From a virus, in UHGV virus genome UHGV-0087471: 22,215 nt of DNA. One strand, given 5' to 3'. Below, one piece after another: positions 2,897-21,876 of this stretch (positions are counted from its first letter, which is position 1; every line of letters begins with the position of its first letter). Made by a program: the position numbers and the translations under genes. The notes below the pieces were generated by a model. It was not told where the DNA came from and made no database searches. It saw only the letters and a list, made by a program, of their open reading frames with translations.

Positions 2897-2909
2897 TTTT
2901 TTGTAAAAG

Positions 2910-4185: not shown

Positions 4186-4194
4186 AATAATAAA

Positions 4195-4221
4195 GGCCTG
4201 GTAAAATCCAGGCCATTTTTT
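4195..4221. terminator. Bidirectional intrinsic terminator between convergent genes
   Basis: GGCCTGG-TAAAAT-CCAGGCC hairpin followed by ATTTTTT; sits between + strand gene ending 4185 and - strand gene ending 4220. Confidence 0.5.
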
Positions 4222-4726: not shown

Positions 4727-5012
4727 GATGCGTCCTTTGTTGTAGTCAGAGACAGCAATAATAGGCCATGGTTTACTTCTTTTGTAAATTATTTGTTCGT
4801 GTTCTTTCGTGGTTGTTCGGTCTGACTGACAGGTGTTTACATACTGATTTTTATGTATATGTTGTAGCGTGGCACTCAGACGTGAGCCGCCACAATGCCG
4901 CCTGACCCCCTGCGCGATGCCGGGTTGATCTGCGAGATGCCGAGAGTGTCGGGCGGCGCTCCCCCCGTGTTGGTTTCACGTCCTGAATCTTAACCAATAC
5001 GAGAAAACCTTC

Positions 5013-6182
5013 ATGAAGAAATTAATCGAACTCCGCCAGCAAAAAAACGCCCTGAAAAACCAGATGCGATCCCTGCTGGAAAAAGCCGACAGTGAAAACC
5101 GTAGTCTGAACGCTGAAGAAGGCAAACAGTTTGATGAACTGCGTGCAAAAGCTGATGCCCTCGACACAGAAATTTCCCGCCTCGAGTCTGTGGCTGATGA
5201 AGAACGCAGCAAGCCAGGAACGGGCATCCAGAAATTATCATCTGATGAATTGCGTAACTACATCGTAACCGGAGATGTGCGATCACTGTCCACCAGCACT
5301 GACAGCGGCAGGGATGGCGGATATACCGTAATTCCTGAGCTTGATCGCGAAGTCATGCGCCAGCTACAGGATGACAGTGTTATGCGCGTGATCGCGACCG
5401 TGAAGACCGCAAAATCAAATGAGTTTCAGAAACTGGTTTCCACTGGCGGCGCAACTGTAGGACGAGGCACAGAAGGCAGCGCACGCAGTGAAACCAACAC
5501 CCCGAAAATTGAACGCGTAACCATCAAGTTGAATCCGATCTACGCCTACCCGAAAACCACGCAGGAAATCCTGGATTTTTCAGAGGTGGATATTCTGGGC
5601 TGGTTATCCTCCGAAATTGCCGACACGTTCGCCAGCACCGAAGAGGATGATTTTGTTAATGGCGACGGTAACGGCAAGCCGAAAGGCTTCATGGCTTACA
5701 CCCGTGCGGCGACCAGTGACAAAACCCGCGCTTTTGGCACCATTGAAAAAATAGTAGCGGCAAGTGGAACCGCCATTACAGCGGACGAACTGATCGACAT
5801 TCTCTACAAGCTGAAAGCGAAATACCGCAAAAATGCCGTATGGGTGATGAACTCGGGCACGGCAGGGACACTACAGAAGCTGAAAAATGAGAACGGCGAT
5901 TATATCTGGCGCGACAGCCTTAAAGAAGGTGCGCCGGATATGTTGCTTGGTCGTCCTGTTTACTGCCTGGAGTCCATGCCGGACATCGGCGCAGGAAAAG
6001 CACCGCTAGCGGTTGGCGATTTCAGTCGTGGTTATTTCATCGTTGATCATGTAACAGGGATTCGCACCCGACCGGACAACATTACTGAACCCGGATTCTA
6101 CAAGGTCCACACGGATAAATATCTGGGCGGTGGTGTGGTGGATTCAAACGCCATCAAAATTCTGGAAATGAAAGCTGGCTAG
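5013..6182 (+). CDS. Major capsid protein, HK97-like fold (389 aa)
   Basis: N-terminal coiled-coil delta/scaffold-like domain followed by a capsid-type region (GNGKPKG, LLGRPV..ES motifs); size typical of HK97-family capsid proteins. Confidence 0.85.
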   Translation: MKKLIELRQQKNALKNQMRSLLEKADSENRSLNAEEGKQFDELRAKADALDTEISRLESVADEERSKPGTGIQKLSSDELRNYIVTGDVRSLSTSTDSGRDGGYTVIPELDREVMRQLQDDSVMRVIATVKTAKSNEFQKLVSTGGATVGRGTEGSARSETNTPKIERVTIKLNPIYAYPKTTQEILDFSEVDILGWLSSEIADTFASTEEDDFVNGDGNGKPKGFMAYTRAATSDKTRAFGTIEKIVAASGTAITADELIDILYKLKAKYRKNAVWVMNSGTAGTLQKLKNENGDYIWRDSLKEGAPDMLLGRPVYCLESMPDIGAGKAPLAVGDFSRGYFIVDHVTGIRTRPDNITEPGFYKVHTDKYLGGGVVDSNAIKILEMKAG

Positions 6183-6192
6183 TCATGAGTAA

Positions 6193-6216
6193 GGAGGAGG
6201 CTGCGGCCTCCTTTTT
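6193..6216 (+). terminator. Intrinsic terminator/attenuator downstream of capsid gene
   Basis: GGAGGC-TGCG-GCCTCC hairpin followed by TTTTT immediately after the capsid stop codon. Confidence 0.45.
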
Positions 6217-6236
6217 CAGCTTTATGGAGTACACCG

Positions 6237-6797
6237 ATGAAAAACACCGATTTTGAAATCCGCACATCTGAACTGACCGCCAGCAATAAAAAGCTGGTGG
6301 GGTATGCCGTTCGCTGGAACAGCCTTTCAGAAATTATCTGGGACGAATTCCGCGAACAGTTCACGCCGGGGGCTTTTGCTGACTATCTGGCGACGGGTAA
6401 TGATGTGCGCTGCCTGTATGAGCATGACTATACCCAACTGCTGGGGCGCACCAAATCCGGCACTCTGGTACTGACTGAGGATAACACCGGGTTACGTTTT
6501 GAACTGACACCGCCGGATACCCAGCTTGGAAAAGATGTGCTTACGCTGGTGGAGCGTGGCGACATTACAGGAATGAGCTTTGGTTTTCGCGCATTATGCG
6601 AGGAGTGGAGTATCGCGCAAAAACCGTATCTGCGTACCGTAACCGCCGCTGAACTCCGTGAAATCACAATAACGTCGATGCCTGCTTATCCAGAATCTGG
6701 CGTGGAGATTGCCCACCGTTCGTTGTTTGCACAGCACCCTGAATTACGTCCGACAGGAAATAATCTTCATCGCTGGTCTGAGCTGGCGGGGTTGTGA
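6237..6797 (+). CDS. Prohead maturation protease, HK97 family (186 aa)
   Basis: Conserved His (LYEHD) and Ser (ITGMSFGF) motifs with spacing typical of HK97 gp4-type proteases; GGAG RBS. Confidence 0.85.
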   Translation: MKNTDFEIRTSELTASNKKLVGYAVRWNSLSEIIWDEFREQFTPGAFADYLATGNDVRCLYEHDYTQLLGRTKSGTLVLTEDNTGLRFELTPPDTQLGKDVLTLVERGDITGMSFGFRALCEEWSIAQKPYLRTVTAAELREITITSMPAYPESGVEIAHRSLFAQHPELRPTGNNLHRWSELAGL

Positions 6798-6798
6798 T

Positions 6799-8013
6799 AT
6801 GTGGTGGCCTTTTAGTCGTAAAAAAAGCGAGCAGCGTAACCTGTCCATTGATGATTTTCTGGCGCTGTCCGGCGTACCGAATACCGGATCCGGAGAATAT
6901 GTTTCTGCCGGGACGGCTGAATCATTGCCTGCAGTGATGAATGCGGTTTCTGTCATCGCTGAGGCGGTGGCCACGATGCCGTGTTATCTGTATCTGGTAC
7001 GTAATGACAAGGGCAGGGAGGCGCGGGAATGGCTGGACAGTCACCCGGTAGATATTCTGCTGAATGAGCAGCCTAATTCGTGCCAGACACCTTACCAGTT
7101 TAAACGCACAATGATGCGTCACTGCCTGCTGAACGGTAACGCCTATGCGGTTATTGAGTGGGGGCAGGACGGGCAGCCAAAATCACTTCATCCTTATGCG
7201 CCGGGGTGTGTTGTACCGGAACGCACAGGCGCACACAAATACCGCTATACCATCACCGAACCCTGTACAGGAACGGTGCGCACGTATTTACAGGAAGAAG
7301 TTCTGCATCTCCGCTATGCCTCGGATGATGGCTTTCTGGGGCGTTCCCCCGTCACGATTTGCCGTGAGGCGCTGGGGCTTGGCCTTGCTCAACAGCGTCA
7401 CGGAGCCAGCATTATGAAAGATGGCATGATGGCGGCAGGGATTATCACGTCAGGCGAATGGCTGGACGGCGTGAAAGGTAAACAGGCATTGGATGCTCTG
7501 GAACGCTACAAGGGGGCGAAAAATGCCGGAAAAACGCCAATCCTTGAAGGGGGCATGGATTACAGGCAACTGGGAATGAGTAACCAGGATGCGGAATGGC
7601 TGGCCTCCCGTCGCTTCTCCATTGAAGACATCGCCCGCATGTTCAACGTATCGCCTATTTTTCTGCAGGAATACAGCAACAGCACCTACAGCAATTTCAG
7701 CGAGGCAAGCCGCGCGTTTCTGACCATGACAATGCGCCCGTGGCTGGCGAACTTCGAACAGCAAATCAAGGCCGCTTTGCTGGTGGCTTCTCCCGTACCT
7801 GGTACCCGTTATCTGGTTGAGTTTGATTCAGCCGATTTATTACGCGCCACACCCACCGAACGTTATGCCACGTATGAGAAAGGGATTAAGAACGGGATCA
7901 TGAATCCGAACGAAGCCCGTGAGCGTGAGGGTATGCCGCCGCGTGAAGGTGGTGATGAGTTCAGCCAGGCATGGAAACAGACTGTGGAAATTAAAGGGAG
8001 AAAAGATGAGTGA
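6799..8013 (+). CDS. Portal protein, HK97 family (404 aa)
   Basis: Size and motifs typical of portal proteins; start set to ATG 6799 just after the protease stop rather than the longest ORF start at 6709. Confidence 0.8.
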   Translation: MWWPFSRKKSEQRNLSIDDFLALSGVPNTGSGEYVSAGTAESLPAVMNAVSVIAEAVATMPCYLYLVRNDKGREAREWLDSHPVDILLNEQPNSCQTPYQFKRTMMRHCLLNGNAYAVIEWGQDGQPKSLHPYAPGCVVPERTGAHKYRYTITEPCTGTVRTYLQEEVLHLRYASDDGFLGRSPVTICREALGLGLAQQRHGASIMKDGMMAAGIITSGEWLDGVKGKQALDALERYKGAKNAGKTPILEGGMDYRQLGMSNQDAEWLASRRFSIEDIARMFNVSPIFLQEYSNSTYSNFSEASRAFLTMTMRPWLANFEQQIKAALLVASPVPGTRYLVEFDSADLLRATPTERYATYEKGIKNGIMNPNEAREREGMPPREGGDEFSQAWKQTVEIKGRKDE

Positions 8014-8308
8014 AGCCAAAATTACACCTGATGAAGTCAGGGCACATCTTCGACTTGATGATGATTTATCCGGTGAAGGCGAACTTCTGAAAATGTATAC
8101 CGATGCGGCGCTGGAAGCCTGCCAGAAGCATATCGGGAAACGTTTTGAAGACGGGCTGGAATTTACCCCGGCAATGCGTGTTGGTTGCCTGATGTACATC
8201 GCTTTCCTGTACGAGAACCGGGAAGCGGTTTCACCAGTGGAGCACTCGGAACTGCCTATGGCTATTTCTGCGCTCTGGTCAGTTTATCGTGACGTAGGGG
8301 TGTACTGA
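8006..8308 (+). CDS. Head-tail connector / DNA-packaging protein, gp6-like (100 aa)
   Basis: N-terminal ITPDEVRAHLRLDDD...E..LLK.Y.DAA.EA pattern typical of gp6-like connectors; AAGGGAG RBS; start ATG 8006 overlaps portal stop. Confidence 0.6.
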   Translation: MSEAKITPDEVRAHLRLDDDLSGEGELLKMYTDAALEACQKHIGKRFEDGLEFTPAMRVGCLMYIAFLYENREAVSPVEHSELPMAISALWSVYRDVGVY

Positions 8309-8748
8309 TGCCGTGGCAACCATTAAGGCGATGCACTGAGCCTGGCTGTAATAAGCGCGTGAAGTCCGGCAAGTGTGAAGAGCACAGGCGGGCTGCATGG
8401 CGTGCAGAGGATGCCAGACGGGGACACCGCCGCGCGCGCGGGTATTCCCGACAGTGGGACAAATACCGCGCCCTGTACCTGAGCAAAAACCCGTTATGCG
8501 TGAGTTGTCTGGCTAAGGGGATTTATACGCCAGCTCTTGTGGTGGATCACATCATTCCCATCAATGGCGGCGGTGATGTTCTCTTCTGGCCTGAGTGGAA
8601 CCACCAGGCATTGTGCCAGACGTGCCACAACCGTAAGACGACACGGGAAGATCCCGCCACGAAAGCGAACCGTAAGGCGGGCATGTATCGCGATCAGGAA
8701 GAACGGGCGGCACACCGTAACGACTGGATGTATGGCGATGATGACTGA
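8308..8748 (+). CDS. HNH endonuclease (terminase-associated, 146 aa)
   Basis: Cys-rich N-terminus (CTEPGCN...C..H) and HNH core (VDHIIPINGGG...NHQALCQTCHNRKT); positioned directly upstream of terS as in HNH-dependent cos packaging systems. Confidence 0.85.
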   Translation: MPWQPLRRCTEPGCNKRVKSGKCEEHRRAAWRAEDARRGHRRARGYSRQWDKYRALYLSKNPLCVSCLAKGIYTPALVVDHIIPINGGGDVLFWPEWNHQALCQTCHNRKTTREDPATKANRKAGMYRDQEERAAHRNDWMYGDDD

Positions 8749-9036
8749 ACAGGAGCAAAACAGGCTGATACGTGGGTTGATAAGGCAGCGTGACACATGG
8801 AAGACACAGGAGACAGGGCACAAAGCCAACAGGACAGGGCGCACAAAACGCACCACAGCGAAGCGATTAACCGACCGTGACCGCGAGGTCATGGAATGTT
8901 TTCGCAATCGCTGGTGAGGCCGTCAGAGGGGGTGGGGGTGGTTTTCAGGACGAAACCGTCCCTGCCGGACACCGACCGCCTCCCCAAATTTTTATGCACG
9001 GGAATTTTTTGAAAAATAATCTGACGAAAAATAAGC

Positions 9037-9393
9037 ATGGCAAGACCACCGAAAGCCCCCGCCTACCTGGATGATATCGCCGTGAAGCAGTGGCGGGAAA
9101 AATCGCGGCAGCTTGCGGAACGGGGAGACCTGACCCCCGCCGACTGGAGCAATCTGGAACTGTATTGCGTCAACTACTCCATTTACCGGAAAGCCGTTGC
9201 AGACCTTGCGGCGCGCGGGTTCAGCATTGTTAACAGTCAGGGCGGCGAGAGCAGAAACCCCGCATTAAGCGCAAAATCCGACGCTGAAAGAGTGATGATA
9301 AAAATGGCCTCCTTGCTCGGTTTTGACCCGATAAGCCGCCGTAAAAATCCACCGGAAACAGAAGAAGAGGACGAGCTTGACCGCCTGGAATAA
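9037..9393 (+). CDS. terS: Terminase small subunit (P27-family-like, 118 aa)
   Basis: Sequence pattern (W...L..G.L...D...L..YC..Y..Y..A...L...G......G....NP) and position immediately upstream of and overlapping the large terminase gene. Confidence 0.75.
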   Translation: MARPPKAPAYLDDIAVKQWREKSRQLAERGDLTPADWSNLELYCVNYSIYRKAVADLAARGFSIVNSQGGESRNPALSAKSDAERVMIKMASLLGFDPISRRKNPPETEEEDELDRLE

Positions 9394-11038
9394 GTACGCA
9401 GAAGACGTAAAAACGGGCAAAATTCCGGCCTGTAAACGGCTGAAACAGGCCGTTAAACGGTACTTTTCGGACCTTGAAAGCCCCCTTTACACGTTCGATC
9501 GTGAGGTTGTGGAGCGGTTTATTGCCTTTTCCAGGGTGTGCGCGCACGTAAAAGGGCCGATGCGTGGCAGACCCATTGAGCTGGAGCCGTGGCAGCAGTT
9601 CGCCTTTGCGTGCATCCTCGGCTTTAAGGTTAAGGCCACCGGACGGCGCAAATACACGAGCGCCTTTATCGAAGTGCCGCGCAAAAATGCGAAATCCACG
9701 ACCGCCGCGATTCTGGCTAACTGGTTTCTGATTATGGAGAACGGTCAGCAGGATATCTACACCGCAGCGGTGAGCCGTGACCAGGCGCGGATCGTCTTTG
9801 ATGATGCGCGTCAGATGTGCCTTTTATCCCGACCGTTACGCAGGCGGGTGAATATTCAGGCGCATAAGGTGATACACCCGAAAACCAACAGCCTGTTAAA
9901 GCCACTGGCAGCAAAAGCGGCAACCATTGAGGGGACAAACCCGAGTCTTGCCATTGTGGATGAATATCACCTGCACCCAGACAACGGGGTTTATTCCGCA
10001 CTTGATATGGGGATGGGCGCACGTCCCGAAGGGCTGTTATTTGCCATTACCACATCGGGCAGTAACGTCGTTTCAGCCTGTAAGCAGCACTATGATTATT
10101 GCTGCCAGATCCTGGACGGCGAAGAGGTCAACGATTCAATTTTTGTACTGATTTACGAACTGGACGACGAAAACGAGGTTGATGATCCGGCGATGTGGAT
10201 AAAGGCTAACCCTAACATCGATGTTTCCGTCGATCGTGAAAAACTGGCCTCAACCATCCAGAAAGCGCGGGGTATTCCGTCGCAATGGGTGGAAATGCTC
10301 ACCAAGCGATTCAATATCTGGTGTCAGGGGGCTACGCCGTGGATGGGTAACGGTGCATGGGCGGAGTGTGCCGGAACGTTCGCGGAGGCGGATTTATACG
10401 GGCAGGAGTGCTACGCGGGGCTGGACTTATCATCAACCAGCGATATTTCCAGCGTGTGCTATGCCTTCCCGGTCGGTAAAAAGATTATGCTGGTTTCCCG
10501 TCACTATCTGCCGGAATTTCAGCTACAGAATCCCGCCAATAAAAACCGCGCCATCTATCGCCAGTGGGTAAAGGCGGGCTGGATACGCACAACACCGGGT
10601 GACTGCATTGATTATGACCGTATCCGTGATGACATCATGGCGGATGCAGAGAATTTCAATATCAGGCTGGTGGGCTTCGATACATGGAACGCCACGCACC
10701 TGAGGACGCAGTTACAGGGCGCAGGATTTGAGGTGGAGCCGTTCCCGCAAACCTACCTCAGATTCAGTCCGGCGGCGAAATCGTTCGAAGTTTTTGTTAA
10801 CCGGAAGGTGATTGTGCATCGTGGTGATCCGGTGCTGGCCTGGTCAATGAGTAATGTTGTGATGCAGAGTGACGCGAACGCCAATATCAAGCCGAACAAG
10901 AAAAAATCATCCAACAAGATAGACCCGAGCGTTGCGGCGCTGATGGCGTTTGGCACATTCCAGGCAGAGCACGAGGACTTTGCATTCGATATGAGCGACA
11001 GCCACAAAGAGCGGCTTGCGGCGTTTGATGGGGTATGA
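9377..11038 (+). CDS. terL: Terminase large subunit (553 aa)
   Basis: Large ORF with terminase-type ATPase N-terminal half and nuclease C-terminal half; appears to start with TTG at 9377 (GAGGA 6 nt upstream), overlapping terS. Confidence 0.9.
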   Translation: MTAWNKYAEDVKTGKIPACKRLKQAVKRYFSDLESPLYTFDREVVERFIAFSRVCAHVKGPMRGRPIELEPWQQFAFACILGFKVKATGRRKYTSAFIEVPRKNAKSTTAAILANWFLIMENGQQDIYTAAVSRDQARIVFDDARQMCLLSRPLRRRVNIQAHKVIHPKTNSLLKPLAAKAATIEGTNPSLAIVDEYHLHPDNGVYSALDMGMGARPEGLLFAITTSGSNVVSACKQHYDYCCQILDGEEVNDSIFVLIYELDDENEVDDPAMWIKANPNIDVSVDREKLASTIQKARGIPSQWVEMLTKRFNIWCQGATPWMGNGAWAECAGTFAEADLYGQECYAGLDLSSTSDISSVCYAFPVGKKIMLVSRHYLPEFQLQNPANKNRAIYRQWVKAGWIRTTPGDCIDYDRIRDDIMADAENFNIRLVGFDTWNATHLRTQLQGAGFEVEPFPQTYLRFSPAAKSFEVFVNRKVIVHRGDPVLAWSMSNVVMQSDANANIKPNKKKSSNKIDPSVAALMAFGTFQAEHEDFAFDMSDSHKERLAAFDGV

Positions 11039-11328
11039 CGAGAATGAGCGAAACCGAACTACTAAAAATAATCCGCCGTGTTACCGGAGCCAGCCAGACA
11101 GCAGACAAACAGGAGGCCACGCAGCCGGACAGCGTGATAGCCGAAAATTACGCGCGTGTGGTGGCTGAGGTGATGCGCCGTGACGGTATTGAGCTTAACG
11201 GCGTGGATATGCGCAACATACGAACCAGAGTCCTTGAGTTGCTGGCATACCGTCGCCGTTCTCAACAACGGAGGGAGAGCGCGAAAAATACTTATCAGTG
11301 GAAGAAGCCGGAACGGTTGCGGCGGTAA
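11035..11328 (+). CDS. Hypothetical protein (97 aa), last gene of packaging module
   Basis: ATG 11035 overlaps terL stop (ATGA); basic C-terminus; no recognisable motif. Confidence 0.4.
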   Translation: MTRMSETELLKIIRRVTGASQTADKQEATQPDSVIAENYARVVAEVMRRDGIELNGVDMRNIRTRVLELLAYRRRSQQRRESAKNTYQWKKPERLRR

Positions 11329-12254
11329 CTTGCAGATATTCCCGATAACGTAAAATTGCGTTGGCTGGCAGAGTGCAAATTTGCACGATGGCCTAACCCA
11401 TTGATTGTTTCGGAAACCTCAATTTGAGGAGGCCGGACAGCGTGACGGAGGGTGACAACCAGTGACACGCCGTGACAAAAAGACGGTTTAACCATCCATT
11501 AAAAATCGACGTGATTTTGTGCTTTCCGTATGAGGTGGCCAGCGTCATTTTTTAGTGAGAAATTCTGGTCAGGGGCGTTGGCTGAATGGTTATTTTATCG
11601 TGCCCATGCACAGGGAGGGGGCGGGTAAAATCTCTGGAGGTGATGCCTGTCAGGACCGCCGCCTGACCCTTCCTCACATCGCCGCAGGTTCGAAAACTTT
11701 TTTTGTGTCAGGTGCGCACGGAATTGATAGATAAAACCTATATTAAAAAATCACGGAAGCCGTGCCATTGCTGGAGCAGTCAAAAATTCCACATCTCACG
11801 GCAGGCAAAAAAAGCGAATTTTGGGCCAGTTGAGGATAAAAAAGGGCTCACTAGTTTTGCACATCCTGGTATCGGGGTCGTCAGCCTCCCGCCAGTAACT
11901 AGGTAACTAATCACGCTGGTGGGCATGATGCCGATGCCGGGATCTCGGTATCGGTTTATCTGTGATCATCCACCAGCTTGATGACAGATAACAGGGAGTC
12001 ATAACGGTTAAAGCGTGTTGATCTTTGTTCGTGGTTGTTCGATATTGTTCGTAAAGCGGTGTAGTTAATGGTGTAGTTAATTTCGCTGTTTTTGACGAGC
12101 TTATCATTTGCAACGCAATGAAAAACAAAGACTAATTAACAAAATGCTATAAATGATAGTTATCTATCATGTGGAGTAGATTGGTCAGGCAAATAAGCTC
12201 TTGTCAGCGGCAGGGCGTTCTGCCGATAACCGTAACCGAAGATGATAACTGACA

Positions 12255-12575
12255 ATGGGTAAAACGAACGACTGGCTGGACTTTGATCAACTGGCGGAAG
12301 AAAAAGTTCGCGACGCGCTAAAACCGCCATCTATGTATAAAGTGATATTAGTCAATGATGATTATACTCCGATGGAGTTTGTTATTGATGTGTTACAAAA
12401 ATTCTTTTCTTATGATGTAGAACGTGCAACGCAATTGATGCTCGCTGTTCACTACCAGGGGAAGGCCATTTGCGGAGTCTTTACCGCTGAGGTTGCAGAA
12501 ACCAAAGTGGCGATGGTGAACAAGTACGCGAGGGAGAATGAGCATCCATTGCTGTGTACGCTAGAAAAAGCCTGA
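12255..12575 (+). CDS. clpS: ATP-dependent Clp protease adaptor ClpS
   Basis: 106-aa translation recognised as E. coli ClpS ([43 protein letters not shown]...). Confidence 0.97.
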
Positions 12576-12605
12576 ATGCAGGCATAAAAATTGGGGGAGG
12601 TGCCT

Positions 12606-14882
12606 ATGCTCAATCAAGAACTGGAACTCAGTTTAAATATGGCTTTCGCCAGAGCGCGCGAGCACCGTCATGAGTTTATGACCGTCGAGCACTTGTTACT
12701 GGCGCTGCTCAGTAACCCATCTGCCCGGGAGGCGCTGGAAGCGTGTTCTGTAGATTTGGTTGCGCTCCGTCAGGAACTGGAAGCCTTTATTGAACAAACC
12801 ACACCCGTTCTGCCTGCCAGTGAAGAGGAGCGCGACACACAGCCGACGTTGAGTTTTCAGCGTGTACTGCAACGTGCGGTCTTCCATGTCCAGTCCTCCG
12901 GTCGCAATGAGGTTACCGGTGCAAACGTTCTGGTCGCTATCTTTAGCGAACAGGAGTCGCAGGCGGCATATCTGTTGCGCAAACATGAAGTCAGCCGTCT
13001 CGATGTGGTGAACTTTATCTCTCATGGCACGCGTAAAGACGAGCCGACACAGTCTTCTGATCCTGGCAGCCAGCCAAACAGCGAAGAACAAGCTGGTGGG
13101 GAGGAACGTATGGAGAATTTCACGACGAACCTGAATCAGCTTGCGCGAGTGGGCGGAATCGACCCACTAATTGGTCGTGAGAAGGAGCTGGAGCGTGCTA
13201 TTCAGGTTCTCTGCCGTCGCCGTAAAAACAACCCGCTGCTGGTGGGGGAGTCTGGTGTCGGTAAAACCGCGATTGCGGAGGGGCTTGCATGGCGAATTGT
13301 TCAGGGCGATGTGCCGGAAGTGATGGCTGACTGTACGATTTACTCTCTCGATATCGGTTCCCTGTTAGCGGGCACAAAATATCGCGGCGACTTTGAAAAA
13401 CGTTTTAAAGCGTTGCTCAAGCAGCTGGAGCAGGACACTAACAGCATCCTGTTTATTGATGAGATCCACACCATTATCGGTGCGGGTGCAGCGTCTGGTG
13501 GCCAGGTCGATGCGGCTAACCTGATTAAACCGTTGCTCTCCAGCGGTAAAATCCGCGTAATTGGTTCGACAACCTATCAGGAGTTCAGCAACATTTTCGA
13601 GAAAGACCGTGCTCTGGCGCGTCGCTTCCAGAAAATTGATATTACTGAACCGTCAATCGAAGAAACTGTTCAAATCATCAATGGCCTGAAACCGAAGTAT
13701 GAAGCGCACCACGACGTGCGTTATACCGCAAAAGCGGTGCGTGCGGCGGTAGAGCTGGCGGTGAAATACATTAACGATCGTCATCTGCCGGATAAAGCGA
13801 TTGATGTTATCGACGAAGCGGGCGCTCGCGCACGTCTGATGCCGGTAAGCAAACGCAAGAAAACCGTTAATGTGGCGGATATTGAATCCGTGGTGGCCCG
13901 TATTGCACGCATTCCAGAGAAGAGTGTTTCTCAGAGTGACCGCGATACCCTGAAAAACCTCGGCGATCGCCTGAAAATGCTGGTCTTCGGTCAGGATAAA
14001 GCCATTGAGGCGCTGACTGAAGCCATTAAGATGGCGCGTGCAGGTTTAGGTCACGAACATAAACCGGTCGGTTCGTTCCTGTTTGCCGGCCCTACTGGGG
14101 TCGGGAAAACAGAGGTGACGGTACAGCTTTCGAAAGCGTTGGGCATTGAGCTTCTGCGCTTTGATATGTCCGAGTATATGGAACGCCATACCGTCAGCCG
14201 TCTGATTGGTGCGCCTCCGGGATACGTTGGTTTTGATCAGGGCGGTTTGCTGACTGATGCGGTCATCAAGCATCCACATGCGGTGCTGCTGCTGGACGAA
14301 ATCGAGAAAGCGCACCCGGACGTGTTCAATATTCTGTTGCAGGTGATGGATAACGGTACGCTGACCGATAACAACGGACGCAAAGCGGACTTCCGTAACG
14401 TGGTGCTGGTGATGACCACTAATGCCGGGGTACGGGAAACTGAGCGCAAATCCATTGGTCTTATCCACCAGGATAACAGCACCGATGCGATGGAAGAGAT
14501 CAAGAAGATCTTTACACCGGAATTCCGTAACCGTCTCGACAACATTATCTGGTTCGATCATCTGTCAACCGACGTGATCCATCAGGTGGTGGATAAATTC
14601 ATCGTCGAGTTGCAGGTTCAGTTGGATCAGAAAGGTGTTTCTCTGGAAGTGAGCCAGGAAGCGCGTAACTGGCTGGCCGAGAAAGGTTACGACCGGGCAA
14701 TGGGCGCACGTCCGATGGCGCGTGTCATCCAGGACAACCTGAAAAAACCGCTCGCCAACGAACTGCTGTTTGGTTCGCTGGTGGACGGCGGTCAGGTCAC
14801 CGTCGCGCTGGATAAAGAGAAAAATGAGCTGACTTACGGATTCCAGAGTGCACAAAAGCACAAGGCGGAAGCAGCGCATTAA
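12606..14882 (+). CDS. clpA: ATP-dependent Clp protease ATP-binding subunit ClpA
   Basis: 758-aa translation recognised as ClpA (two AAA+ modules; Walker A GESGVGKT and GPTGVGKT). Start set to ATG 12606 with GGGGGAGG RBS rather than upstream TTG 12591. Confidence 0.97.
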
Positions 14883-15094
14883 TCTGATTGTCTGGTAGGT
14901 TGGTGAAGTCCGTAATCTCGTCAGGGGTTACGGACTTTTTATTTATGGGGGGAGGAGGTTCAGACCCTTTTTTTGATGATGATGGTAAGTTATTGATAAT
15001 TAGTGCTGCGGGTAGGTAAGGATAAAAAAGGGTGGCAGCAGGAGATTGAGATGGTTTTGCTTTATTAACAACGGGCTAAACGTGTAGTATTTGA

Positions 15095-15182
15095 GTTCAC
15101 TGCCGTACAGGCAGCTTAGAAATTGCCGCGGATCCTGTCTGCCAATAATGACAAGTTCACTGCCGTACAGGCAGATAAAATG
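15095..15182 (+). CRISPR. Minimal orphan type I-F CRISPR array (2 repeats, 1 spacer)
   Basis: Repeat 1 GTTCACTGCCGTACAGGCAGCTTAGAAA (15095..15122) matches the canonical I-F repeat; 32-bp spacer TTGCCGCGGATCCTGTCTGCCAATAATGACAA (15123..15154); repeat 2 (15155..15182) degenerate at its 3' end. No cas genes in window. Confidence 0.8.
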
Positions 15183-15184
15183 CG

Positions 15185-15212
15185 AAAAAAAAGCCCGTAC
15201 TTTCGTACGAGC
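15185..15212 (-). terminator. Intrinsic terminator of serW
   Basis: On the minus strand, GCUCGUAC-GAAA-GUACGGGC hairpin followed by U8, 14 nt downstream of the tRNA 3' end. Confidence 0.55.
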
Positions 15213-15225
15213 TCTTCTTTAAATA

Positions 15226-15313
15226 TGGCGGTGAGGGGGGGATTCGAACCCCCGATACGTTGCCGTATACACACTTTCCAGGCGTGCTCCTTCAGCCACT
15301 CGGACACCTCACC
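15226..15313 (-). tRNA. serW: tRNA-Ser (anticodon GGA)
   Basis: 88-nt sequence GGTGAGGTGTCCGAGTGGCTGAAGGAGCACGCCTGGAAAGTGTG...GGTTCGAATCCCCCCCTCACCGCCA on minus strand; long variable arm, encoded CCA; clpA-serW gap (344 bp) matches my recollection of E. coli K-12. Confidence 0.95.
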
Positions 15314-15356
15314 AAATTGTTTTTTTGCCTGACCTCATGGGGGGCAACGGGGCGCT

Positions 15357-15385
15357 ACTATAGGGAGTTGGAATAAAACGGTCAA
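15357..15385 (-). promoter_or_regulatory. Putative sigma70 promoter of serW
   Basis: On minus strand TTGACC (-35, 15385..15380), 17-nt spacer, TATAGT (-10, 15362..15357), about 40 nt upstream of the mature tRNA 5' end. Confidence 0.4.
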
Positions 15386-15678
15386 GAAGAATTTTTATGA
15401 TAATTATTGTTTGCTCATACTGTAAACAAGTTGTGCAGTATATCTACATCTGATGCGCCGCGCGATAAATAAGCCGCAATCCGTGAGATAAATGGACACA
15501 GTGCGGCTTTTCAGATACGGAAAAGGAATTACAGATTATCAGTCGTAAGCAACCCACGCTTACTGGCAAGGATGGTTTACAATGCTGAAAGCGCCTCCCG
15601 GCAATACCGCCAATCATCACTCAAACAGAAAAAATTATTGCTCATGGTTCACTCCGGTAATGAATCGTTTTACAGGCG

Positions 15679-16272
15679 TCATTCGGTCATGGAAAGATTG
15701 CTGATTTCGGTAATCCCGGCAATTTCCTCGCTGACGGATTTCAGTTCGATTTCCAGCTTGGTGCGTTCGTTGACCAGCGCAGCTACGGTCTTACGGCGGT
15801 CTGCCAGTGACGGAAGGTTGTCATTGCCCCACGCCACGCTTTTATCCTTTTTGAGCGCTTCGGTCAGGCGGGTGGCGACCACATCCGGGAAGAAAAAGCA
15901 TAACTTACGCATAACCGTCATCCCGACATCAGCCAGGGGGACATTCCCGCTCAGTCCCACCAGACGGAACAGACCAGAAATATCACCATTCTCATTTTCC
16001 AGATTACCCCAGCGTTCGGCGTTCCCTTCACTGCCGGAACCGTTGCAAAGAGCAAGCTTGAATGACTGATATTCTTCCTGCCCGAATCGCTCAATATATT
16101 CAGGAATAAAGGAACAGTAATCATTAAGCGATAATGGCATATCCTGTAATGTGGTTATTTCACTGTTAATCTCTCCAATTCGGCGGGAGAGCTTTTCTTT
16201 CTGCTCATTCAGGGAGGCAAGATTATTTTTAACGGCGTTCAGTGCTTCGATAAGGGAAATAACAGGTTTCAT
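15679..16272 (-). CDS. Hypothetical coiled-coil protein (197 aa), scaffold-like
   Basis: Start ATG 16272 with GGAG RBS, 1 nt after stop of upstream gene; N- and C-terminal heptad-like segments (LIEALNAVKNNLASLNEQKEKLSRRIGEINSEITTLQ; KTVAALVNERTKLEIELKSVSEEIAGI). Function inferred only from composition. Confidence 0.55.
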   Translation of the reverse strand: MKPVISLIEALNAVKNNLASLNEQKEKLSRRIGEINSEITTLQDMPLSLNDYCSFIPEYIERFGQEEYQSFKLALCNGSGSEGNAERWGNLENENGDISGLFRLVGLSGNVPLADVGMTVMRKLCFFFPDVVATRLTEALKKDKSVAWGNDNLPSLADRRKTVAALVNERTKLEIELKSVSEEIAGITEISNLSMTE

Positions 16273-16273
16273 T

Positions 16274-16888
16274 TTAATAACTCCAGATGAAAGGCGTGGT
16301 GAGGGCGAGCGCTTCAGAATAGGAGACATTGCAGGCTGCACTTACGTCCTTTATTAAAAGGTGCTGTGCTGCCCTCTGACTGTCTGCTATGCCGTCAAAC
16401 TCTGAAAAATGAACGTGTGATTCATTGTGATAAAAGCAAACCGGGTAACAGCTTTCCATAAATTCTACCTGCGCCAGTCCCTTTACTGCTGGAGGCTGTG
16501 AGCCGAGAAAACCGATATGCTGAAGATACCAGGCACCGATTCCTGCCGGGTTGTTCGCTTCGCCGGGTCTATAAAATGCCGCAGACACTTTCCTGTAACG
16601 CCCTGCGCGTACCAGTCCCAGCAGGGTTTCATCAGGCTTAACCAGCGCGAAAAGCCTGCCGTTTTTACTTATCAGCCCAGTTGTTTCACCATAAGATGGG
16701 CTGTTGCTGGCCGGATGTCCAATACACAGCGGCGCACCATAACCCGCACGATGATAGCCGTTATAGGCTGCCGCCATGTTGTCGATATCCTCGTCGGAAA
16801 AGGCAATTTCCTGCCCAGCCATCGTGATATGCGTTCCCGCCCGGAATATCTCGATAGTTTTCCAGTTGCCAATATCGATATCTTTCAT
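16274..16888 (-). CDS. Hypothetical protein (204 aa); weak resemblance to phage prohead proteases (HK97 / Mu gpI-like)
   Basis: Start codon overlaps stop of upstream Mor-like gene. By-eye motif similarity to the satellite's own HK97 protease: His-containing CIGHP, then GLISKNGRLFALVKPDETLLGLV...KVSAAFYR paralleling GTLVLTEDNTGLRFELTPPDTQLG...TGMSFGFR. Unverified. Confidence 0.5.
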   Translation of the reverse strand: MKDIDIGNWKTIEIFRAGTHITMAGQEIAFSDEDIDNMAAAYNGYHRAGYGAPLCIGHPASNSPSYGETTGLISKNGRLFALVKPDETLLGLVRAGRYRKVSAAFYRPGEANNPAGIGAWYLQHIGFLGSQPPAVKGLAQVEFMESCYPVCFYHNESHVHFSEFDGIADSQRAAQHLLIKDVSAACNVSYSEALALTTPFIWSY

Positions 16889-16889
16889 T

Positions 16890-17423
16890 TTAAATTACCC
16901 CATATTTCGCATCGCGCTGTATTTTATTTTTCTTGCGTTCGGCGGCTATAATCTGATAAATACACTGAATGGAACGCTTGTATTTTTTTGATAGTTCAAA
17001 AATAGAGATACCCTGATAAAAATCAGCCAGTATTTTTGAGTTCCTGTCGAAAGTGTTTTTTGATGCGCCCATAGGGATATATATATTCCCCCTGAAAAAT
17101 GTATTCCTGAGACATTCAGTGATGGCAGGAGAAAGTTTTTCGGCTTGCGAACAGAGGTAAGGTATGGTTCCTAATGTCTGCTCAATAGATTCAGTCAGCT
17201 CCTGTAGGAAGCGAACTGCCTTAGGTGCTCTTTCTCGGTGTTCAGCCATATACCCCTGGCAGCCACCAAGGTTATCAGAGATACCCAACACAATATGATT
17301 AGCCGCACTGCAGGACTGTTGCCGTGAATACCCTTTGTTGATCAGAAACACTTCTATAGCATCGCCCATTGCCCCCAAAGTATCGGATGAAGCATACAAT
17401 CCTTCTCTTGTAATCATAATCAC
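16890..17423 (-). CDS. Mor/C-family transcriptional activator-like protein (177 aa)
   Basis: C-terminal region GNIYIPMG...FDRNSKILADFYQGISIFELSKKYKRSIQCIYQIIAAERKK resembles the Mu Mor motif (G.VYIP.G ... DF.G.N..EL...Y......Y.I) with a C-terminal HTH; identification from remembered family signature, not a search. Confidence 0.5.
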   Translation of the reverse strand: MIMITREGLYASSDTLGAMGDAIEVFLINKGYSRQQSCSAANHIVLGISDNLGGCQGYMAEHRERAPKAVRFLQELTESIEQTLGTIPYLCSQAEKLSPAITECLRNTFFRGNIYIPMGASKNTFDRNSKILADFYQGISIFELSKKYKRSIQCIYQIIAAERKKNKIQRDAKYGVI

Positions 17424-17657
17424 ACCTCGTCAACGATAAATATGCGCACATAAAGCCTTTATAAAGCTTTATGAGGTGCATTACTGGTGTCATTCCATGA
17501 TGCACACCACCAACAACCAAAAACGCCTTACAGAGCATTTCAATGTGTGTTATTAATGTGGATTAAGAATATGGTTTTGGGGCGAGAATGTTTTTTAATG
17601 TACTTTAGATATGACGAAGCCCCTCAAAGGAGGGGCGAGGCGGAAAACTATTTATAA

Positions 17658-17936
17658 CTATTCCTTACTCTCCTGATCAAGACGATTACCTATCAGGTTA
17701 ATCATTGCCATTGCATCAGATAGCAGGATACTGTTAACAAGTGCTAAGGGCGTCTGTGTTGATTTATCATCAACGGCAACAGAAAGTTCATCATTCAGGC
17801 GACGAACGGCCTCAAGACGGCTAAAGGCGGCTTCCCATATTTCTGTACTCGGGGCATCAGCATTAACAAACAAAACATCGTAAGACGTTCCCTGAGACTC
17901 ATGAGGACAGGCTATGAAATTAGCAGTAGCTTTCAT
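17658..17936 (-). CDS. Hypothetical acidic protein (92 aa)
   Basis: ORF whose start overlaps the stop of the upstream gene (ATGA at 17933..17936); no recognisable motif. Confidence 0.45.
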   Translation of the reverse strand: MKATANFIACPHESQGTSYDVLFVNADAPSTEIWEAAFSRLEAVRRLNDELSVAVDDKSTQTPLALVNSILLSDAMAMINLIGNRLDQESKE

Positions 17937-18412
17937 TTTGCAGTCCTCCGGTTAATTATAAATTTATTATAAATTTCATAACTTGCGGCATTCAGTCCTG
18001 GACTGTATTTATCTGCCAGTGAACAGGCAATGAATTCTTCAATCGATTTAGTCAGTATATCAAGCTCAGTTGTTCCGGAATAACGCAAGGCCACTCGAAA
18101 TAATTCTCGGCAGTATGTTTTTTTATGGTCAATATTTTGTAACTGCTGTTGCGGTATATCACGACGTTCAAATATATTAACAAATGCATTAAGCGGGAAG
18201 CTATGATTTGCCTGCGGATATTGCTCATAGGAAAACACCACAGTATTACCGTTGCATTCTTTAACAATTGCATTCATACCGCTGTTAATTTCAATATACC
18301 ACTCTCCTATACATGGAGGATTGATAGCTTCGCTCTGTGCCTTGATTAAAGGTAAGCGGATAGTATCCACTTGGTTTGTTGCAACTGAATCGTTAGACTT
18401 GTCGTTAGCCAT
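17933..18412 (-). CDS. Hypothetical protein (159 aa)
   Basis: Start ATG 18412 with AGGA RBS about 9 nt upstream (longest ORF extends to 18430); first gene of the minus-strand cluster; no recognisable motif. Confidence 0.45.
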   Translation of the reverse strand: MANDKSNDSVATNQVDTIRLPLIKAQSEAINPPCIGEWYIEINSGMNAIVKECNGNTVVFSYEQYPQANHSFPLNAFVNIFERRDIPQQQLQNIDHKKTYCRELFRVALRYSGTTELDILTKSIEEFIACSLADKYSPGLNAASYEIYNKFIINRRTAK

Positions 18413-18600
18413 GACTGTTATCCTACACATAACGGTTTTTGGTTAGGCCATAGCAAGTGCTCGCAACATTTGTTATGGCCGTTTCTTTGGCCCTTTCCCT
18501 GTGATAAGGTATAGACCTAACAAGTAAACACTAAGCCATAGGTCTATACATGTCAACTATCTTGAGAGATAAAAGCCAAAAAGGGGCAGGGAAAGCCCCC

Positions 18601-18741
18601 ATGTTTAACGTTAGAATATCGCCAGATTTGAAAGAACAGTTTGAAATACAAGCAAAAAAAGAAGGTGTTAGCTTGGGAAACTGGCTCAAGGAACTTGGCA
18701 GGGCGGAACTAAAACGTAAGGGGATCGAGCCGAAAGGGTGA
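18601..18741 (+). CDS. Small ribbon-helix-helix (Arc/MetJ/CopG-like) regulator (46 aa)
   Basis: MFNVRISPDLKEQFEIQAKKEGVSLGNWLKELGRAEL fits a beta-strand/helix/Gly/helix RHH pattern; divergent from the minus-strand cluster; ATG 18601 preferred (GGGA upstream) over ORF start 18550. Confidence 0.4.
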   Translation: MFNVRISPDLKEQFEIQAKKEGVSLGNWLKELGRAELKRKGIEPKG

Positions 18742-18767
18742 TGTTTTAGTCTCCCTGTGTTTGATTA

Positions 18768-19601
18768 AAAGCGAAATCGCTTTCACATTTAAAGTTCAAG
18801 ATAGCCAATGCCATCACCAAAGCGGACAGCGCTGTCCGCTTTTCATCAGTAAAAACCACATATTTACGCCAAAACGCTCAACGTTGAGCGCTACGTACCC
18901 CGGCAAAAGCGCAAGCGTCTGCGCTTTTGGTAACAAGCAATCAGCATTTAAATGCGGACAACGTTGACCGTTTTGAGGAATCAATGTCGGCTGAGCAAAA
19001 ACGACAACGTTGTCGTTTTTAAAACGGCAAGCGCTTACCGTTTCAGATTATCGAGGCGGTAAGAGTTTACCGTTTGGTGTCAATTATGTTCAATAAGCGA
19101 AAACGTTTTCGCATTTTCTCACCTAACGCGGCAAACCTTCTTTGTCCTAGATGGAAAAACGACAGCGCTGTCGTTTCTAATCCGGGGTTCCAAACCGCTC
19201 AGCGCTGAGCGGTTCTGTGGCTTTCTTACAATCCAAATCCGCCAACGTTGGCAGATTTGCAAATATCACATATGATTGATGGTCCCGAATCACAAATGTC
19301 CCAGCGCGGGGATATTTCAAGTAGTTCAATCATTTCATGCGCTGGCAGTCATCTCCAAAACTGCGAACGCCTGCCCTTTCAGTACAGTTTGGTAATATAT
19401 ATTGGTAAGCTTTACTTGTAGAAATATAAAACTCCAAAAGCGCCAGCGCTGGCGCTTTGTAAGGCCAGCAATATCATTCCCAGCGCTGGAATACTAAAAG
19501 GCGGATTCCTGCATCTTAATTTGAGATGGAATCTCATGGCAATCCAGTGTTAACGTAGGGTTTTAGCCAGTACTCACGACTTGAATATGCCAGCGCTGGC
19601 A
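18768..19601. repeat. Array of about 17 short perfect or near-perfect palindromes (14-24 bp) centred on AGCGCT or AACGTT
   Basis: Perfect palindromes at 18819..18842, 18875..18890, 18997..19020, 19097..19112, 19157..19176, 19193..19214, 19437..19458, 19588..19601; imperfect ones between them; one more of the same family at 21106..21129 beyond the IS903 copy. Confidence 0.6.
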
Positions 19602-19823
19602 CATTTGAAGTCTGGTAACATCAATAATCTAATGACACCTGATGTAATTTTGAACCCTGAACTGGAATCAACCCCAAATTTAATGGCAACAGCTATCAGC
19701 CAGATTACTGATGAACGTGACCTGCTGAACCAATTACTTGACCAAGCACAGATGGCCGATGCATTCGAGCAATTTTCCCGAACGGTTCGGACTTCTAAAC
19801 TGGCTTTTGTGAAGGAAAACAAG

Positions 19824-20880
19824 GGCTTTGTTGAATAAATCAGATTTCGGGTAAGTCTCCCCCGTAGCGGGTTGTGTTTTCAGGCAATACGCACGCTTTC
19901 AGGCATACCTGCTTTCGTCATTTTGTTCAGCGCTCGTACCAGGGCCATAGCCTCTGCAACCTGACCATCGTAGTCACGCAGTGTCAGTGAACCTCCGAAC
20001 AGCTGTTTTACCCGGTACATCGCCGTTTCCGCTATCGAGCGACGGTTATAATCTGTTGTCCATTTCCACCGCGCATTACTCCCGGTCAGCCGCTGATTCG
20101 CAACAGCACGGTTACGGTCTGCATATTCACCGGGCCAGTAACCCGCGCCTTTTCGGGGCGGGATAAGCGCGCTGATTTTCTTACGCCGCAGTTCATCGTG
20201 ACAGAGCCGGGTGTCGTAAGCGCCGTCTGCCGATGCTGCCCTGATTTTTCTGTGAGTCTGCCGGATAAGACCCGGGAAGGCTTCTGAGTCCGTCACATTG
20301 TTCAGCGACAGGTCTGCACAGATGATTTCATGTGTTTTGCTGTCAACTGCCAGATGCAACTTTCGCCATATACGACGGCGTTCTTTGCCGTGTTTTTTGA
20401 CTTTCCATTCGCCTTCACCAAAGACCTTCAGCCCGGTGGAATCAATCACCAGATGCGCGATTTCACCTCGGGTGAACGTTTTGAAACTGACATTAACCGA
20501 CTTTGCGCGCTTGCTGACACTGGTGTAATCCGGGCAGCGCAACGGAACATTCATCAGTGTAAAAATGGAATCAATAAAACCCTGTGCAGCCCGCAGGGTC
20601 AACCTGAACACGCGTTTAATGACCAGAACGGTGGTGATGGCGAGATCAGAATAGCGCTGAGGTCTTCCCCGTGATGAAGGCGTTGCCGACTCATACCAGG
20701 CCTGAATAGCTTCATCATCCAGCCAGAAAGTTATGGAGCCACGGTTGATGAGGGCTTTATTGTAGGTGGGCCAGTTGGTGATTTTGAACTTTTGCTTTGC
20801 CACGGAACGGTCTGCGTTGTCGGGAAGATGCGTGATCTGATCCTTCAACTCAGCAAAAGTTCGATTTATTCAACAAAGCC
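19824..20880 (-). mobile_element. IS903 (IS5 family), complete 1057-bp copy
   Basis: 18-bp terminal inverted repeats GGCTTTGTTGAATAAATC at 19824..19841 and 20863..20880; ends match remembered IS903 sequence; 9-bp direct target duplication GAAAACAAG at 19815..19823 and 20881..20889. Confidence 0.92.
19880..20803 (-). CDS. IS903 transposase (DDE, IS5 family; 307 aa if started at GTG 20803)
   Basis: Translation matches IS903 transposase as I recall it (VAKQKFKITNW...). The longest ORF extends 15 codons further to 20848; the GTG start is chosen to match the commonly annotated 307-aa product. Confidence 0.85.
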   Translation of the reverse strand: MAKQKFKITNWPTYNKALINRGSITFWLDDEAIQAWYESATPSSRGRPQRYSDLAITTVLVIKRVFRLTLRAAQGFIDSIFTLMNVPLRCPDYTSVSKRAKSVNVSFKTFTRGEIAHLVIDSTGLKVFGEGEWKVKKHGKERRRIWRKLHLAVDSKTHEIICADLSLNNVTDSEAFPGLIRQTHRKIRAASADGAYDTRLCHDELRRKKISALIPPRKGAGYWPGEYADRNRAVANQRLTGSNARWKWTTDYNRRSIAETAMYRVKQLFGGSLTLRDYDGQVAEAMALVRALNKMTKAGMPESVRIA

Positions 20881-21876
20881 GAAAACAAGCTGTATCGCAA
20901 TCTAAAGGGTAAGAAGACACCGAACGGTTCGGAGTTTTCGGGTACATGGGATGAATTTTGTAATGTTCTTGGAATATCCGTTGATAAGGCAGATTTGGAT
21001 ATTGCCAACCTAAGAACCTTCGGCGAAAAAGCCCTCGAATCCATGCCTCGTATGGGGAGCGGCTATCGTGAACTTCGTCAGTTCCGCCGACTACAAGACT
21101 ATCAGAAAAGCGCCAACGTTGGCGCTTTTGGGAAAAGCCAAACAACCCTGCTATTCCGCTTCATGAAACACTTGAGGCATCACAAAACCAAATAGCATTA
21201 CACCAGTAACAGATCATTTCTCAGTTCGGAGATGGCCTGCTGTTTGATCTGTTGTGTAACGAAGAAAAAATTCGCAGTCATTTATCACGCAGCGCTGAAG
21301 AAATGCTGGAAGCTGGACAAGCGCTGGTTGTATCGCGTAATTGTTTGCTGCATGAAGAGTGGCTAAATTTTCTTTCCCCTTTAGATTTAGAGTGCTGTGT
21401 TGCTCAACGCATAGCACAAGCAGCCGTATAATTTTCAAATGTGTCGATGTCGACGTATTTGATCCATACTGTTGGCACCAAATTTAAATCATAGATGCGG
21501 GGCTGCGCGATATTGAGATTAAATCTGTCACAAAAATATTGGCCTGCGGCACGCGGATACTGGGAGCAAAGGAAGTTCGGGTGTGATAACCCAGACTGCC
21601 ATCACGTAAAGTACCTGACTAACTCATGCGGAATCATCCTTTTTGTTATGAACCCTGTTTCAGCAAACTCGATTCTAAGTTGCCAGGAAGGATGATTTTA
21701 ATGTCCCACTTATCTTTCATATAGCGGAAAAGAATTTCAGTTCTGTTCACCAGATCCCACGTTATCCCACTCCAATTCGTTATTTATCTCACGGATCACC
21801 ATTCATTTATCTCACGTCCCTTCATACATCGAGACAAGTTACGGACTTATACTTCTAAAGTACTCCATACATATCA

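Follow-up and report, generated by a model that had tools for sequence, protein, structure and literature searches.

A Mor-headed operon with a truncated prohead protease as the probable core of a transposase-less, Mu-like satellite element in Enterobacterales

The 22,215-nt stretch of UHGV virus genome UHGV-0087471 analysed here (the window) carries a 6,374-bp island with a three-gene operon, Mor-B-C, encoding a Mor/C-family activator (gene A), a truncated prohead protease (B) and a helical protein (C). We consider it reasonably probable that a non-autonomous Mu-like satellite, dependent on a helper, has this module at its core and manipulates the head assembly of the helper with it, and the transposase-less element to which it belongs probably parasitises a Mu-like phage of the BcepMu type. 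That these elements make up a new class of satellites in the Enterobacterales is a proposal we would accept or doubt about equally; members of such a class would be ~8 kb long, lack integrase and replicase, be mobilised by the helper transposase through end mimicry, and remodel the virion with a protease and its partner, to which full copies add a tape measure protein and a TerS N-domain protein. What has decayed in the window island is evidently a small, self-contained element without a transposase, and not a 37-kb prophage.

The Mor-B-C operon and its products

All coordinates are positions in the window, and positional, open reading frame (ORF) and junction facts were read from its sequence. 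The ORF list and the junction sequence bear out the three adjoining minus-strand genes described in an earlier note on this DNA:

16890-17423, minus strand: gene A, Mor/C-family activator, 177 aa from a GTG start
16274-16888, minus strand: gene B, truncated prohead protease by homology and fold, 204 aa
15679-16272, minus strand: gene C, 197-aa helical protein, from an ATG start (the mechanical ORF reaches 16341)

In RefSeq gene A starts at the ATG at 17417, giving a 175-aa product. Both the A/B and the B/C junctions read TAA-A-ATG (TAAAATG), and the 1-nt spacers are compatible with translational coupling. No capsid, portal, terminase or Mu-type transposase gene lies alongside the operon within the island, just as the earlier note had said; the only transposase there is that of an unrelated IS5 element.

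Gene A, the first gene of an operon that continues into a tape measure gene in full copies of the element, is the long one of two Mor alleles, ~35% identical, that are swapped among element copies. Its residues 68-167 align with positions 2-100 of the 107 in PF08765 at 56.5 bits (cut-off 24.9) and it also matches phrog_532 (4e-17), in agreement with its earlier assignment as a Mor/C homologue. Activators of this family act on sigma-70 promoters that have no -35 box.

Gene B had been likened, tentatively, to the HK97/Mu gpI-like proteases, and this is now strengthened by profile match, fold and invariant residues. Its product matches the phrog_976 'head maturation protease' profile with E 1.5e-42, over profile positions 31-172 of 415 only, and is ~41% identical to the N-terminal ~160 residues of BcepMu gp32 and of the phiE255, RcapMu and related transposable-phage proteases, and 39-42% identical to the protease of the EC958 prophage, the candidate helper described below. 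A structure search assigns it a fold of the assemblin/T4 gp21 type, with a domain spanning residues 1 to ~130 followed by a disordered linker and a C-terminal tail. All 34 aligned homologues share His58, Ser102 and His124, which by analogy with the herpesvirus proteases we take to be the catalytic triad. The Mu gpI/gpZ, P2 gpO and BcepMu gp32 protease-scaffold fusions share with B both the N-terminal assemblin-fold domain and the extreme C-terminal tail, whose motif ...CNVSYSEAL... is common to the full-length proteases (...ADSQRAAQHLLIKDVSAACNVSYSEAL... in B, ...ADPERLALHQKAVALSKKEGISYEAAV... in the helper protease). Unlike its full-length relatives, which are 320-371 aa in length compared with the 204 aa of B, it lacks the central coiled-coil/scaffold segment of ~190 aa, and no capsid gene is adjacent. 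Of the attributes of a prohead protease, the homology, the fold and the His-Ser-His residues are therefore present, and the fused scaffold segment and the portal and capsid neighbours are not. On homology and predicted fold, B is a truncated prohead protease that has kept the catalytic residues and the C-terminal tail but not the scaffold segment. Both of the folds that the earlier note proposed to look for were found, Mor by profile, and the protease by profile and fold.

The predicted structure of C is an all-helical hairpin with long N- and C-terminal helices, and its conserved non-coiled core comprises DYCSFIPEY, RKLCFFFP and WGND. C has no family in Pfam, PHROG, NCBIfam or PADLOC, with sub-threshold coiled-coil matches only in Pfam and PHROG, and no match among 50,697 phage records; a profile search places it in a broad uncharacterised family with 127 cluster representatives at E<1e-3. 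Fold searches against BFVD and PDB return generic helical hairpins only, and a hidden Markov model of C finds nothing among all helper ORFs or among the proteins of a 12.5-kb mini-Mu (see below). The scaffold likeness of C proposed in the earlier note is at most a possibility, C being helical but showing no homology either to scaffolds or to the scaffold segment of full-length proteases. A displaced scaffold segment of the protease was considered as its origin and rejected, the hhalign comparison of the C family with scaffold segments giving a probability of 1.7%. In the elements C is always paired with B, in the order B, C, tape measure gene. A 56%-identical homologue without B was seen after a YagK/YfjJ-family gene in DRR517651 (Logan; locus positions 2065-2637); AlpA and a TIR-domain protein are encoded in the same island.

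Among orthologues at 80-87% nucleotide identity (dS 0.25-0.8), the ratio of nonsynonymous to synonymous substitution rates (dN/dS) is lowest in the tape measure gene, at 0.11, followed by B at 0.12 and C at 0.18. All three genes are under purifying selection, and given these values B and C are not chance ORFs. Outlying dN/dS values were considered as positive selection and this was ruled out, since they come from the Erwinia tracheiphila copies, which are pseudogenes with in-frame stop codons. Both of these copies are affected (a stop at codon 33 and S102L in B, a stop at codon 69 in C), and the tape measure gene has a frameshift in one and an unidentified insert of ~1.45 kb in the other.

The element family and its likely helper

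The island occupies 15451-21824, between the tRNA-Ser gene serW (15226-15313) and infA, with bounds taken from the serW-infA spacer of K-12, in which the site is empty and reads ...TATCTACATCGAGAC.... A 6-bp target-site duplication, TACATC, flanks the island and is single in K-12, where positions 404-409 align to both flanks:

15445-15450: left copy of the target-site duplication, TACATC
15451-15588: left terminus, starting TGATGCGCCGCGCGATAAAT and retaining the final codons of the lost tape measure gene
21767-21824: right terminus, a variant end, ending ...ATTTATCTCACGGATCACCATTCATTTATCTCACGTCCCTTCA (island tip ...GTCCCTTCA)
21825-21830: right copy of the target-site duplication, TACATC

The termini are TG...CA, and nucleotides 12-20 and 35-43, counted inwards from either tip, form G[AC]GATAAAT motifs. 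Identity between the left terminus and that of full elements is 92.7%, and at the right terminus the two GAGATAAAT motifs are spaced from the tip just as at the left end.

Relatives of the element at 80-87% nucleotide identity are present in E. coli (AW1.7, MS 115-1 and others), on Citrobacter and Enterobacter plasmids, in Yersinia intermedia, Intestinirhabdus, Tenebrionibacter and Erwinia tracheiphila, and on IMG/VR contigs. Full copies are 7.3-9.6 kb long and share a common architecture. From one end they contain a Gp27/TerS N-domain gene (in most copies), an ORF-poor stretch of ~1 kb, a 79-aa gene and a ribbon-helix-helix gene, and after the point of divergence an early gene, a ~92-aa gene, a terminator-like hairpin, Mor, B, C and the gene for an 827-aa tape measure protein, which reaches the other end. 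Mor, the repressor and the small genes come in alleles that are reassorted from copy to copy, with B, C and the tape measure protein conserved. None of the copies examined has a transposase, an integrase, a replicase or a full set of head and tail genes. The earlier note had named intact Mu-like structural genes flanking the operon in relatives as a sign of simple prophage decay, and this is not what the relatives contain: they add only the tape measure gene and the TerS N-domain gene, inside a single unit with TG...CA ends and a 6-bp duplication.

Eleven copies have both ends (nine from genomes and metagenomes, one in a phage-plasmid-like IncFIB plasmid, and the window copy), and in every one of them the termini are TG...CA and the 6-bp duplication is perfect, no two duplications being alike. 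Insertion sites include ynbC, a 2-hydroxyacid dehydrogenase gene, the transfer region of an integrative and conjugative element (ICE) and the major capsid gene of a lambdoid prophage; the last is split by a second, different element allele in AW1.7 (locus positions 7983-16768), which like Erwinia has two copies. An IMG/VR metagenome contig of 7,799 bp starts and stops exactly at the element termini, as heterogeneous flanks would cause an assembly to do. From these comparisons, the family appears beyond reasonable doubt to have transposed as a unit many times, at unrelated sites.

The most likely source of the missing transposase is a prophage of the Bcepmuvirus type. The element tape measure protein is 70% identical to that of the Bcepmuvirus Escherichia phage PhiKM, and the prophage of EC958 (NZ_HG941718.1:1004835-1041882; 37,048 bp) has ends TGATGCGCCGCGCGATAAAT... 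and ...GTCTAATCA and a 6-bp duplication, GAAGAA. Element ends are 80-85% identical to the two EC958 prophage ends over the first ~50 nt, with equal motif spacing, and the left end of the window island is identical to the tail-side prophage end over the first 20 nt. BcepMu, PhiKM and the EC958 prophage resemble the element in the TG...CA termini, the two spaced G[AC]GATAAAT motifs and the 6-bp duplication, as well as in having homologous Mor, protease domain, tape measure protein, Gp27 TerS N-domain and DUF3102-like early protein. In contrast to these 37-kb phages the element is only ~7-8 kb, it has no DDE transposase, ATPase, terminase large subunit, portal, capsid, sheath, tube or baseplate genes, its protease is without the scaffold segment, and it contains gene C, which the Bcepmuvirus phages do not. 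Identities between element and helper proteins range from 24 to 70% (tape measure protein 70%, TerS N-domain 43%, B ~40%, Mor 24-29%; C has no counterpart), and the orientation of Mor and of the TerS-like gene with respect to the ends is opposite to that in the helper. Given that the proteins are distant paralogues and these genes are inverted, the element is not a recent deletion derivative of the helper.

Among 5,426 complete genomes of E. coli, 639 have the gene for the helper DDE transposase. In E. coli ZH063, which is identical to the window over the stretch compared, a helper-type prophage sits in ssuB at a distance of ~70 kb from the island; its tape measure gene (locus positions 38442-41207) is annotated as a pseudogene and is missing its C-terminus, and this resident prophage may be defective. 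Co-residence of helper and full element was considered as an argument and dropped, the carriers MS 115-1, the CX strains and LR536431 having no resident helper.

The Mor-B and B-C pairs also recur on other small elements. JGI metagenome 3300056625 (~3690-16190) contains a 12.5-kb mini-Mu with its own repressor, Ner, MuA, MuB and GemA, which also carries Mor, a mini-protease, a Gp44-type hub and, further on, a tape measure gene and a Gp27 N-domain gene, but has no capsid, portal, terminase, sheath or tube genes. Its ends contain CGCGAAA..GTTTGAAAC repeats, and it looks like an autonomously transposing counterpart of the transposase-less element. Another element has Mor, a mini-protease, a cement protein and, further on, a major capsid protein; an IMG/VR contig reads Mor, B, C, Mu F-like and Mu G-like (F and G being read from sequence motifs); and on a short contig with a mini-protease and a major capsid protein, a distant C homologue sits after the capsid gene. 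A further island, encoding an integrase, AlpA and Ash together with a primase of the P4-alpha type, has homologues of both genes after the primase, and that of B (hhalign probability 99.4%) overlaps that of C. The B-like protein of one further locus, L021, has no relatives in IMG/VR. The B-C cassette is associated with head genes and absent from the sequenced phages searched, and its recurrence on such varied backgrounds indicates that it behaves as a cassette of small phage-dependent elements.

Control region, early genes and decay of the window copy

Upstream of Mor and to its right, the window island contains the following features:

17424-17657, minus strand: control region, defined in an alignment of 10 copies and kept whichever Mor allele comes next
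17658-17936, minus strand: early gene, 92 aa, in a position kept in all copies, with two alleles
17933-18430, minus strand: early gene, 165 aa, with a variable N-terminus and a conserved C-terminal part of ~70 aa
18550-18741, plus strand, divergent: ribbon-helix-helix gene, 63 aa, Arc-like, annotated as a HicB-family antitoxin
18798-19007, plus strand: remnant of the 79-aa gene of full elements (tblastn 52% over residues 3-73; no intact ORF listed)
19880-20848, minus strand: IS5-family transposase (PF13737/PF01609), a secondary insertion missing from other copies
20849-21766: degraded right third, fragments only, from which the Gp27/TerS N-domain gene of most full copies is gone

The control region contains a terminator-like hairpin (17619-17636), the block ATATCTAAAGTACATTAAAAAACAT and the palindrome ATAAAGCTTTAT (17461-17472), which lies ~35 nt ahead of the Mor start. 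A regulatory role for 17424-17657 is suggested by this conservation. A scan of the island for consensus promoters and terminators was set aside, its counts being no higher than in shuffled sequence, and an Rfam search of the window and one full element returned only tRNA and a CRISPR repeat.

The 92-aa early protein has no family match in Pfam, PHROG, PADLOC or NCBIfam. The conserved C-terminal domain of ~70 aa in the first early protein (KYSPGLNAASYE.Y) is present in all copies with the N-terminal part swapped, and lies at 17933-18146 in the window, at 5741-5960 in the MS 115-1 locus (L004) and at 2835-3005 in locus L030; in some other copies the N-terminus is DUF3102-like, resembling a helper early protein. 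The 63-aa protein matches PF05534 at 28.7 bits over the ribbon-helix-helix part only (residues 19-47), as well as phrog_228, an Arc-like repressor. No HicA partner gene adjoins it, and with the ribbon-helix-helix part alone matching, its identity as a HicAB toxin-antitoxin component was rejected; it is instead a candidate repressor of the element.

The ORF-poor stretch of the MS 115-1 element (7085-8136) is ~1 kb long, has several hairpins and is partly kept at 19326-19635 in the window. It holds a 27-aa hydrophobic ORF, MKGFLQIAVIALKAIIAFIELILACLP (MS 115-1 locus 7822-7905), and might encode a small toxin or serve as a packaging or replication site. Just left of IS5, an 85-aa ORF at 19581-19838 matches the N-terminus of phrog_4623 (E 6e-16, positions 11-76 of 329) and by this match is a fragment of a phage protein. 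Outside the island, an orphan CRISPR remnant lies at 15095-15182, between clpA and serW, with no cas genes within the window; Rfam CRISPR-DR4 matches 15095-15122 (50.1 bits), and the repeat partly recurs at 15154-15174.

Besides the IS5 insertion and the degradation of its right third, the window copy has suffered a deletion of ~2.4 kb that took the tape measure gene (junction 15586/15589). It is probably no longer a complete satellite, although it keeps both ends and Mor-B-C intact and shares its genome with a helper-type prophage at ~70 kb. The 4.2 kb at 15300-19500 are 100% identical to E. coli ZH063 and others, with an O25:H4 isolate among the matches. Counting genomes that match this 4.2-kb query over 80% or more of its length, only 23 of the 5,426 have this version.

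A proposed satellite of transposable phages and its alternatives

We propose the following mode of action for the element. When the helper replicates in the cell, its DDE transposase and ATPase would act in trans on the mimicked ends, amplifying the element by replicative transposition. The Mor-headed operon would be turned on and B and C made, along with the tape measure protein in full copies. B, taken to the helper capsid protein by its tail, would enter helper procapsids or compete there, and together with C could alter or block procapsid assembly, for example in favour of small heads fit for a genome of ~8 kb. In full copies, the TerS N-domain protein might redirect or disturb packaging, and the element tape measure protein might bias tail or injection functions; one speculation is that it would permit escape from injection-blocking exclusion in helper lysogens.

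An element of this kind would work most like a cross between a mini-Mu and a satellite of the P4/SaPI type. Laboratory mini-Mu needs only its ends in cis, with transposase supplied from elsewhere, and it resembles the element in these respects as well as in random sites and a fixed-length duplication; the element differs in being a natural, multi-genus lineage with its own candidate repressor and activator and a selected set of virion-protein paralogues. Satellite P4, with its helper P2, is similarly small and without structural genes, and likewise has a late activator of the helper's regulatory class and capsid-directed proteins. Its delta activator is of the P2 Ogr class, its Sid protein is capsid-directed, and it persists without a resident helper. 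Unlike P4, the element has no integrase or primase, integrates by transposition and carries a tape measure gene, and its candidate capsid effector is a protease paralogue and not an external scaffold. The PICI/SaPI systems (CpmA/CpmB, Ccm, TerS-like, Ppi) provide parallels for a capsid-binding tail and for a packaging-redirecting TerS-like protein, CpmB being a satellite protein with a helper-like C-terminal capsid-binding tail. The integrase-AlpA-Ash-primase island with the B-C pair has a PICI/P4-like layout, whereas the window's element family has no int, alpA or pri-rep and has Mu-type ends. As such, the integrase, AlpA or other excision regulator and primase or replicase of the P4-like, PICI, cfPICI and PLE families are absent from the window island and from full elements; of the characters of transposable phages, the ends and the fixed duplication are present, and a DDE transposase with its ATPase and a full virion gene set are not.

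Several observations weigh against the satellite interpretation. Mobilisation, packaging and capsid remodelling are proposed from comparative sequence analysis, and helper dependence is suggested indirectly, by end mimicry, multiple copies per genome and the metagenome contig that ends at the termini. The motifs upstream of Mor were searched for in the helper prophage and none are there, so there is no support for a helper activator driving the operon. C has no detectable similarity to scaffolds by profile, fold or hhalign comparison, and the scheme does not account for the carriage of a tape measure gene. The listed window-type copies are all 100% identical and therefore give no sign of recent mobility. 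Full elements in MS 115-1, the CX strains and LR536431 are each accompanied by a single tape measure match, with no second helper-type gene, although P4-like satellites too are often found without a resident helper.

The earlier note had left two readings open, and of these the capsid-interfering or satellite one is the better supported by comparative context, with B-C occurring in an integrase-AlpA-primase island and beside major capsid genes. The other, a degraded Mu-like prophage remnant without current function, deleted from a full-length Bcepmuvirus prophage, is right as regards decay of the window copy, with its tape measure deletion, IS5, fragmented right third and lost 79-aa gene, and the stop codons in B and C and the S102L change of the Erwinia copies also fit it. 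As an account of origin it meets several objections, in that the same reduced architecture with ends and perfect duplications is found at 11 independent sites in several genera, gene orientation is unlike that of the helper, proteins are only 24-70% identical, purifying selection is strong, and B-C also occurs on a non-Mu backbone. We regard the remnant explanation as improbable for the module, and for the element family as a whole it is largely refuted. Much the same low probability attaches to a non-autonomous 'mini-Mu' that borrows transposase only, in the manner of a miniature inverted-repeat transposable element, with the virion paralogues as cargo acting for the helper or host and no satellite packaging or transfer. 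Transposition in trans is the best-supported step of the scheme, and copies that sit on plasmids or in an ICE could spread by other means; however, the conserved cargo consists solely of head, tail and packaging paralogues and a late activator, under purifying selection, and by analogy with Mu-like phages anything between such ends would be expected to be packaged by the headful, as is known for laboratory mini-Mu.

It is somewhat more plausible, although still unlikely, that B-C, with Mor, is chiefly an anti-phage defence cassette, in which, once a phage with this type of head infects the cell, the truncated protease enters or attacks procapsids and aborts assembly, protecting the population, with transfer secondary or absent. 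This would fit the position of the B-C pair after the primase in the integrase-AlpA-primase island, the lone C homologue in an island with a TIR protein, and the retention of Mor-B-C in a window copy whose transfer-related genes are lost, and satellite interference and defence overlap in known systems. No PADLOC model matches the island proteins, however, the sole hit being C to the coiled-coil region of LmuB (E 0.0023, with no stretch passing alone), and full elements co-transcribe B-C with the tape measure gene and add a TerS N-domain gene and helper-like ends, which speaks for transfer as well.

To our knowledge, the satellite families described (P4-like, PICI, cfPICI, PLE and PICMI) are integrase-based, and we know of none for transposable phages. 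A literature search, in which not all journals were covered, returned no description of transposable-phage satellites or of these proteins; a paper touching on BcepMu and satellites (PMC4936722) concerns a helper prophage with an integrase gene and not a transposable-phage satellite.

If the satellite interpretation is correct, the element would represent a new lifestyle, that of a satellite which is also a non-autonomous transposon, and a new route for tampering with capsid assembly, by way of a protease paralogue that keeps the capsid-binding tail. The two-gene B-C cassette could then serve as a probe for more satellites. The element would also account for the recurrent island of 'Mor plus hypothetical proteins' in E. 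coli, one lineage of which matches ST131/O25:H4; the candidate helper prophage is found in many further ST131 genomes and in the genome to which the window belongs. With its random insertion into genes, plasmids and prophages, the element would be a source of mutation as well.

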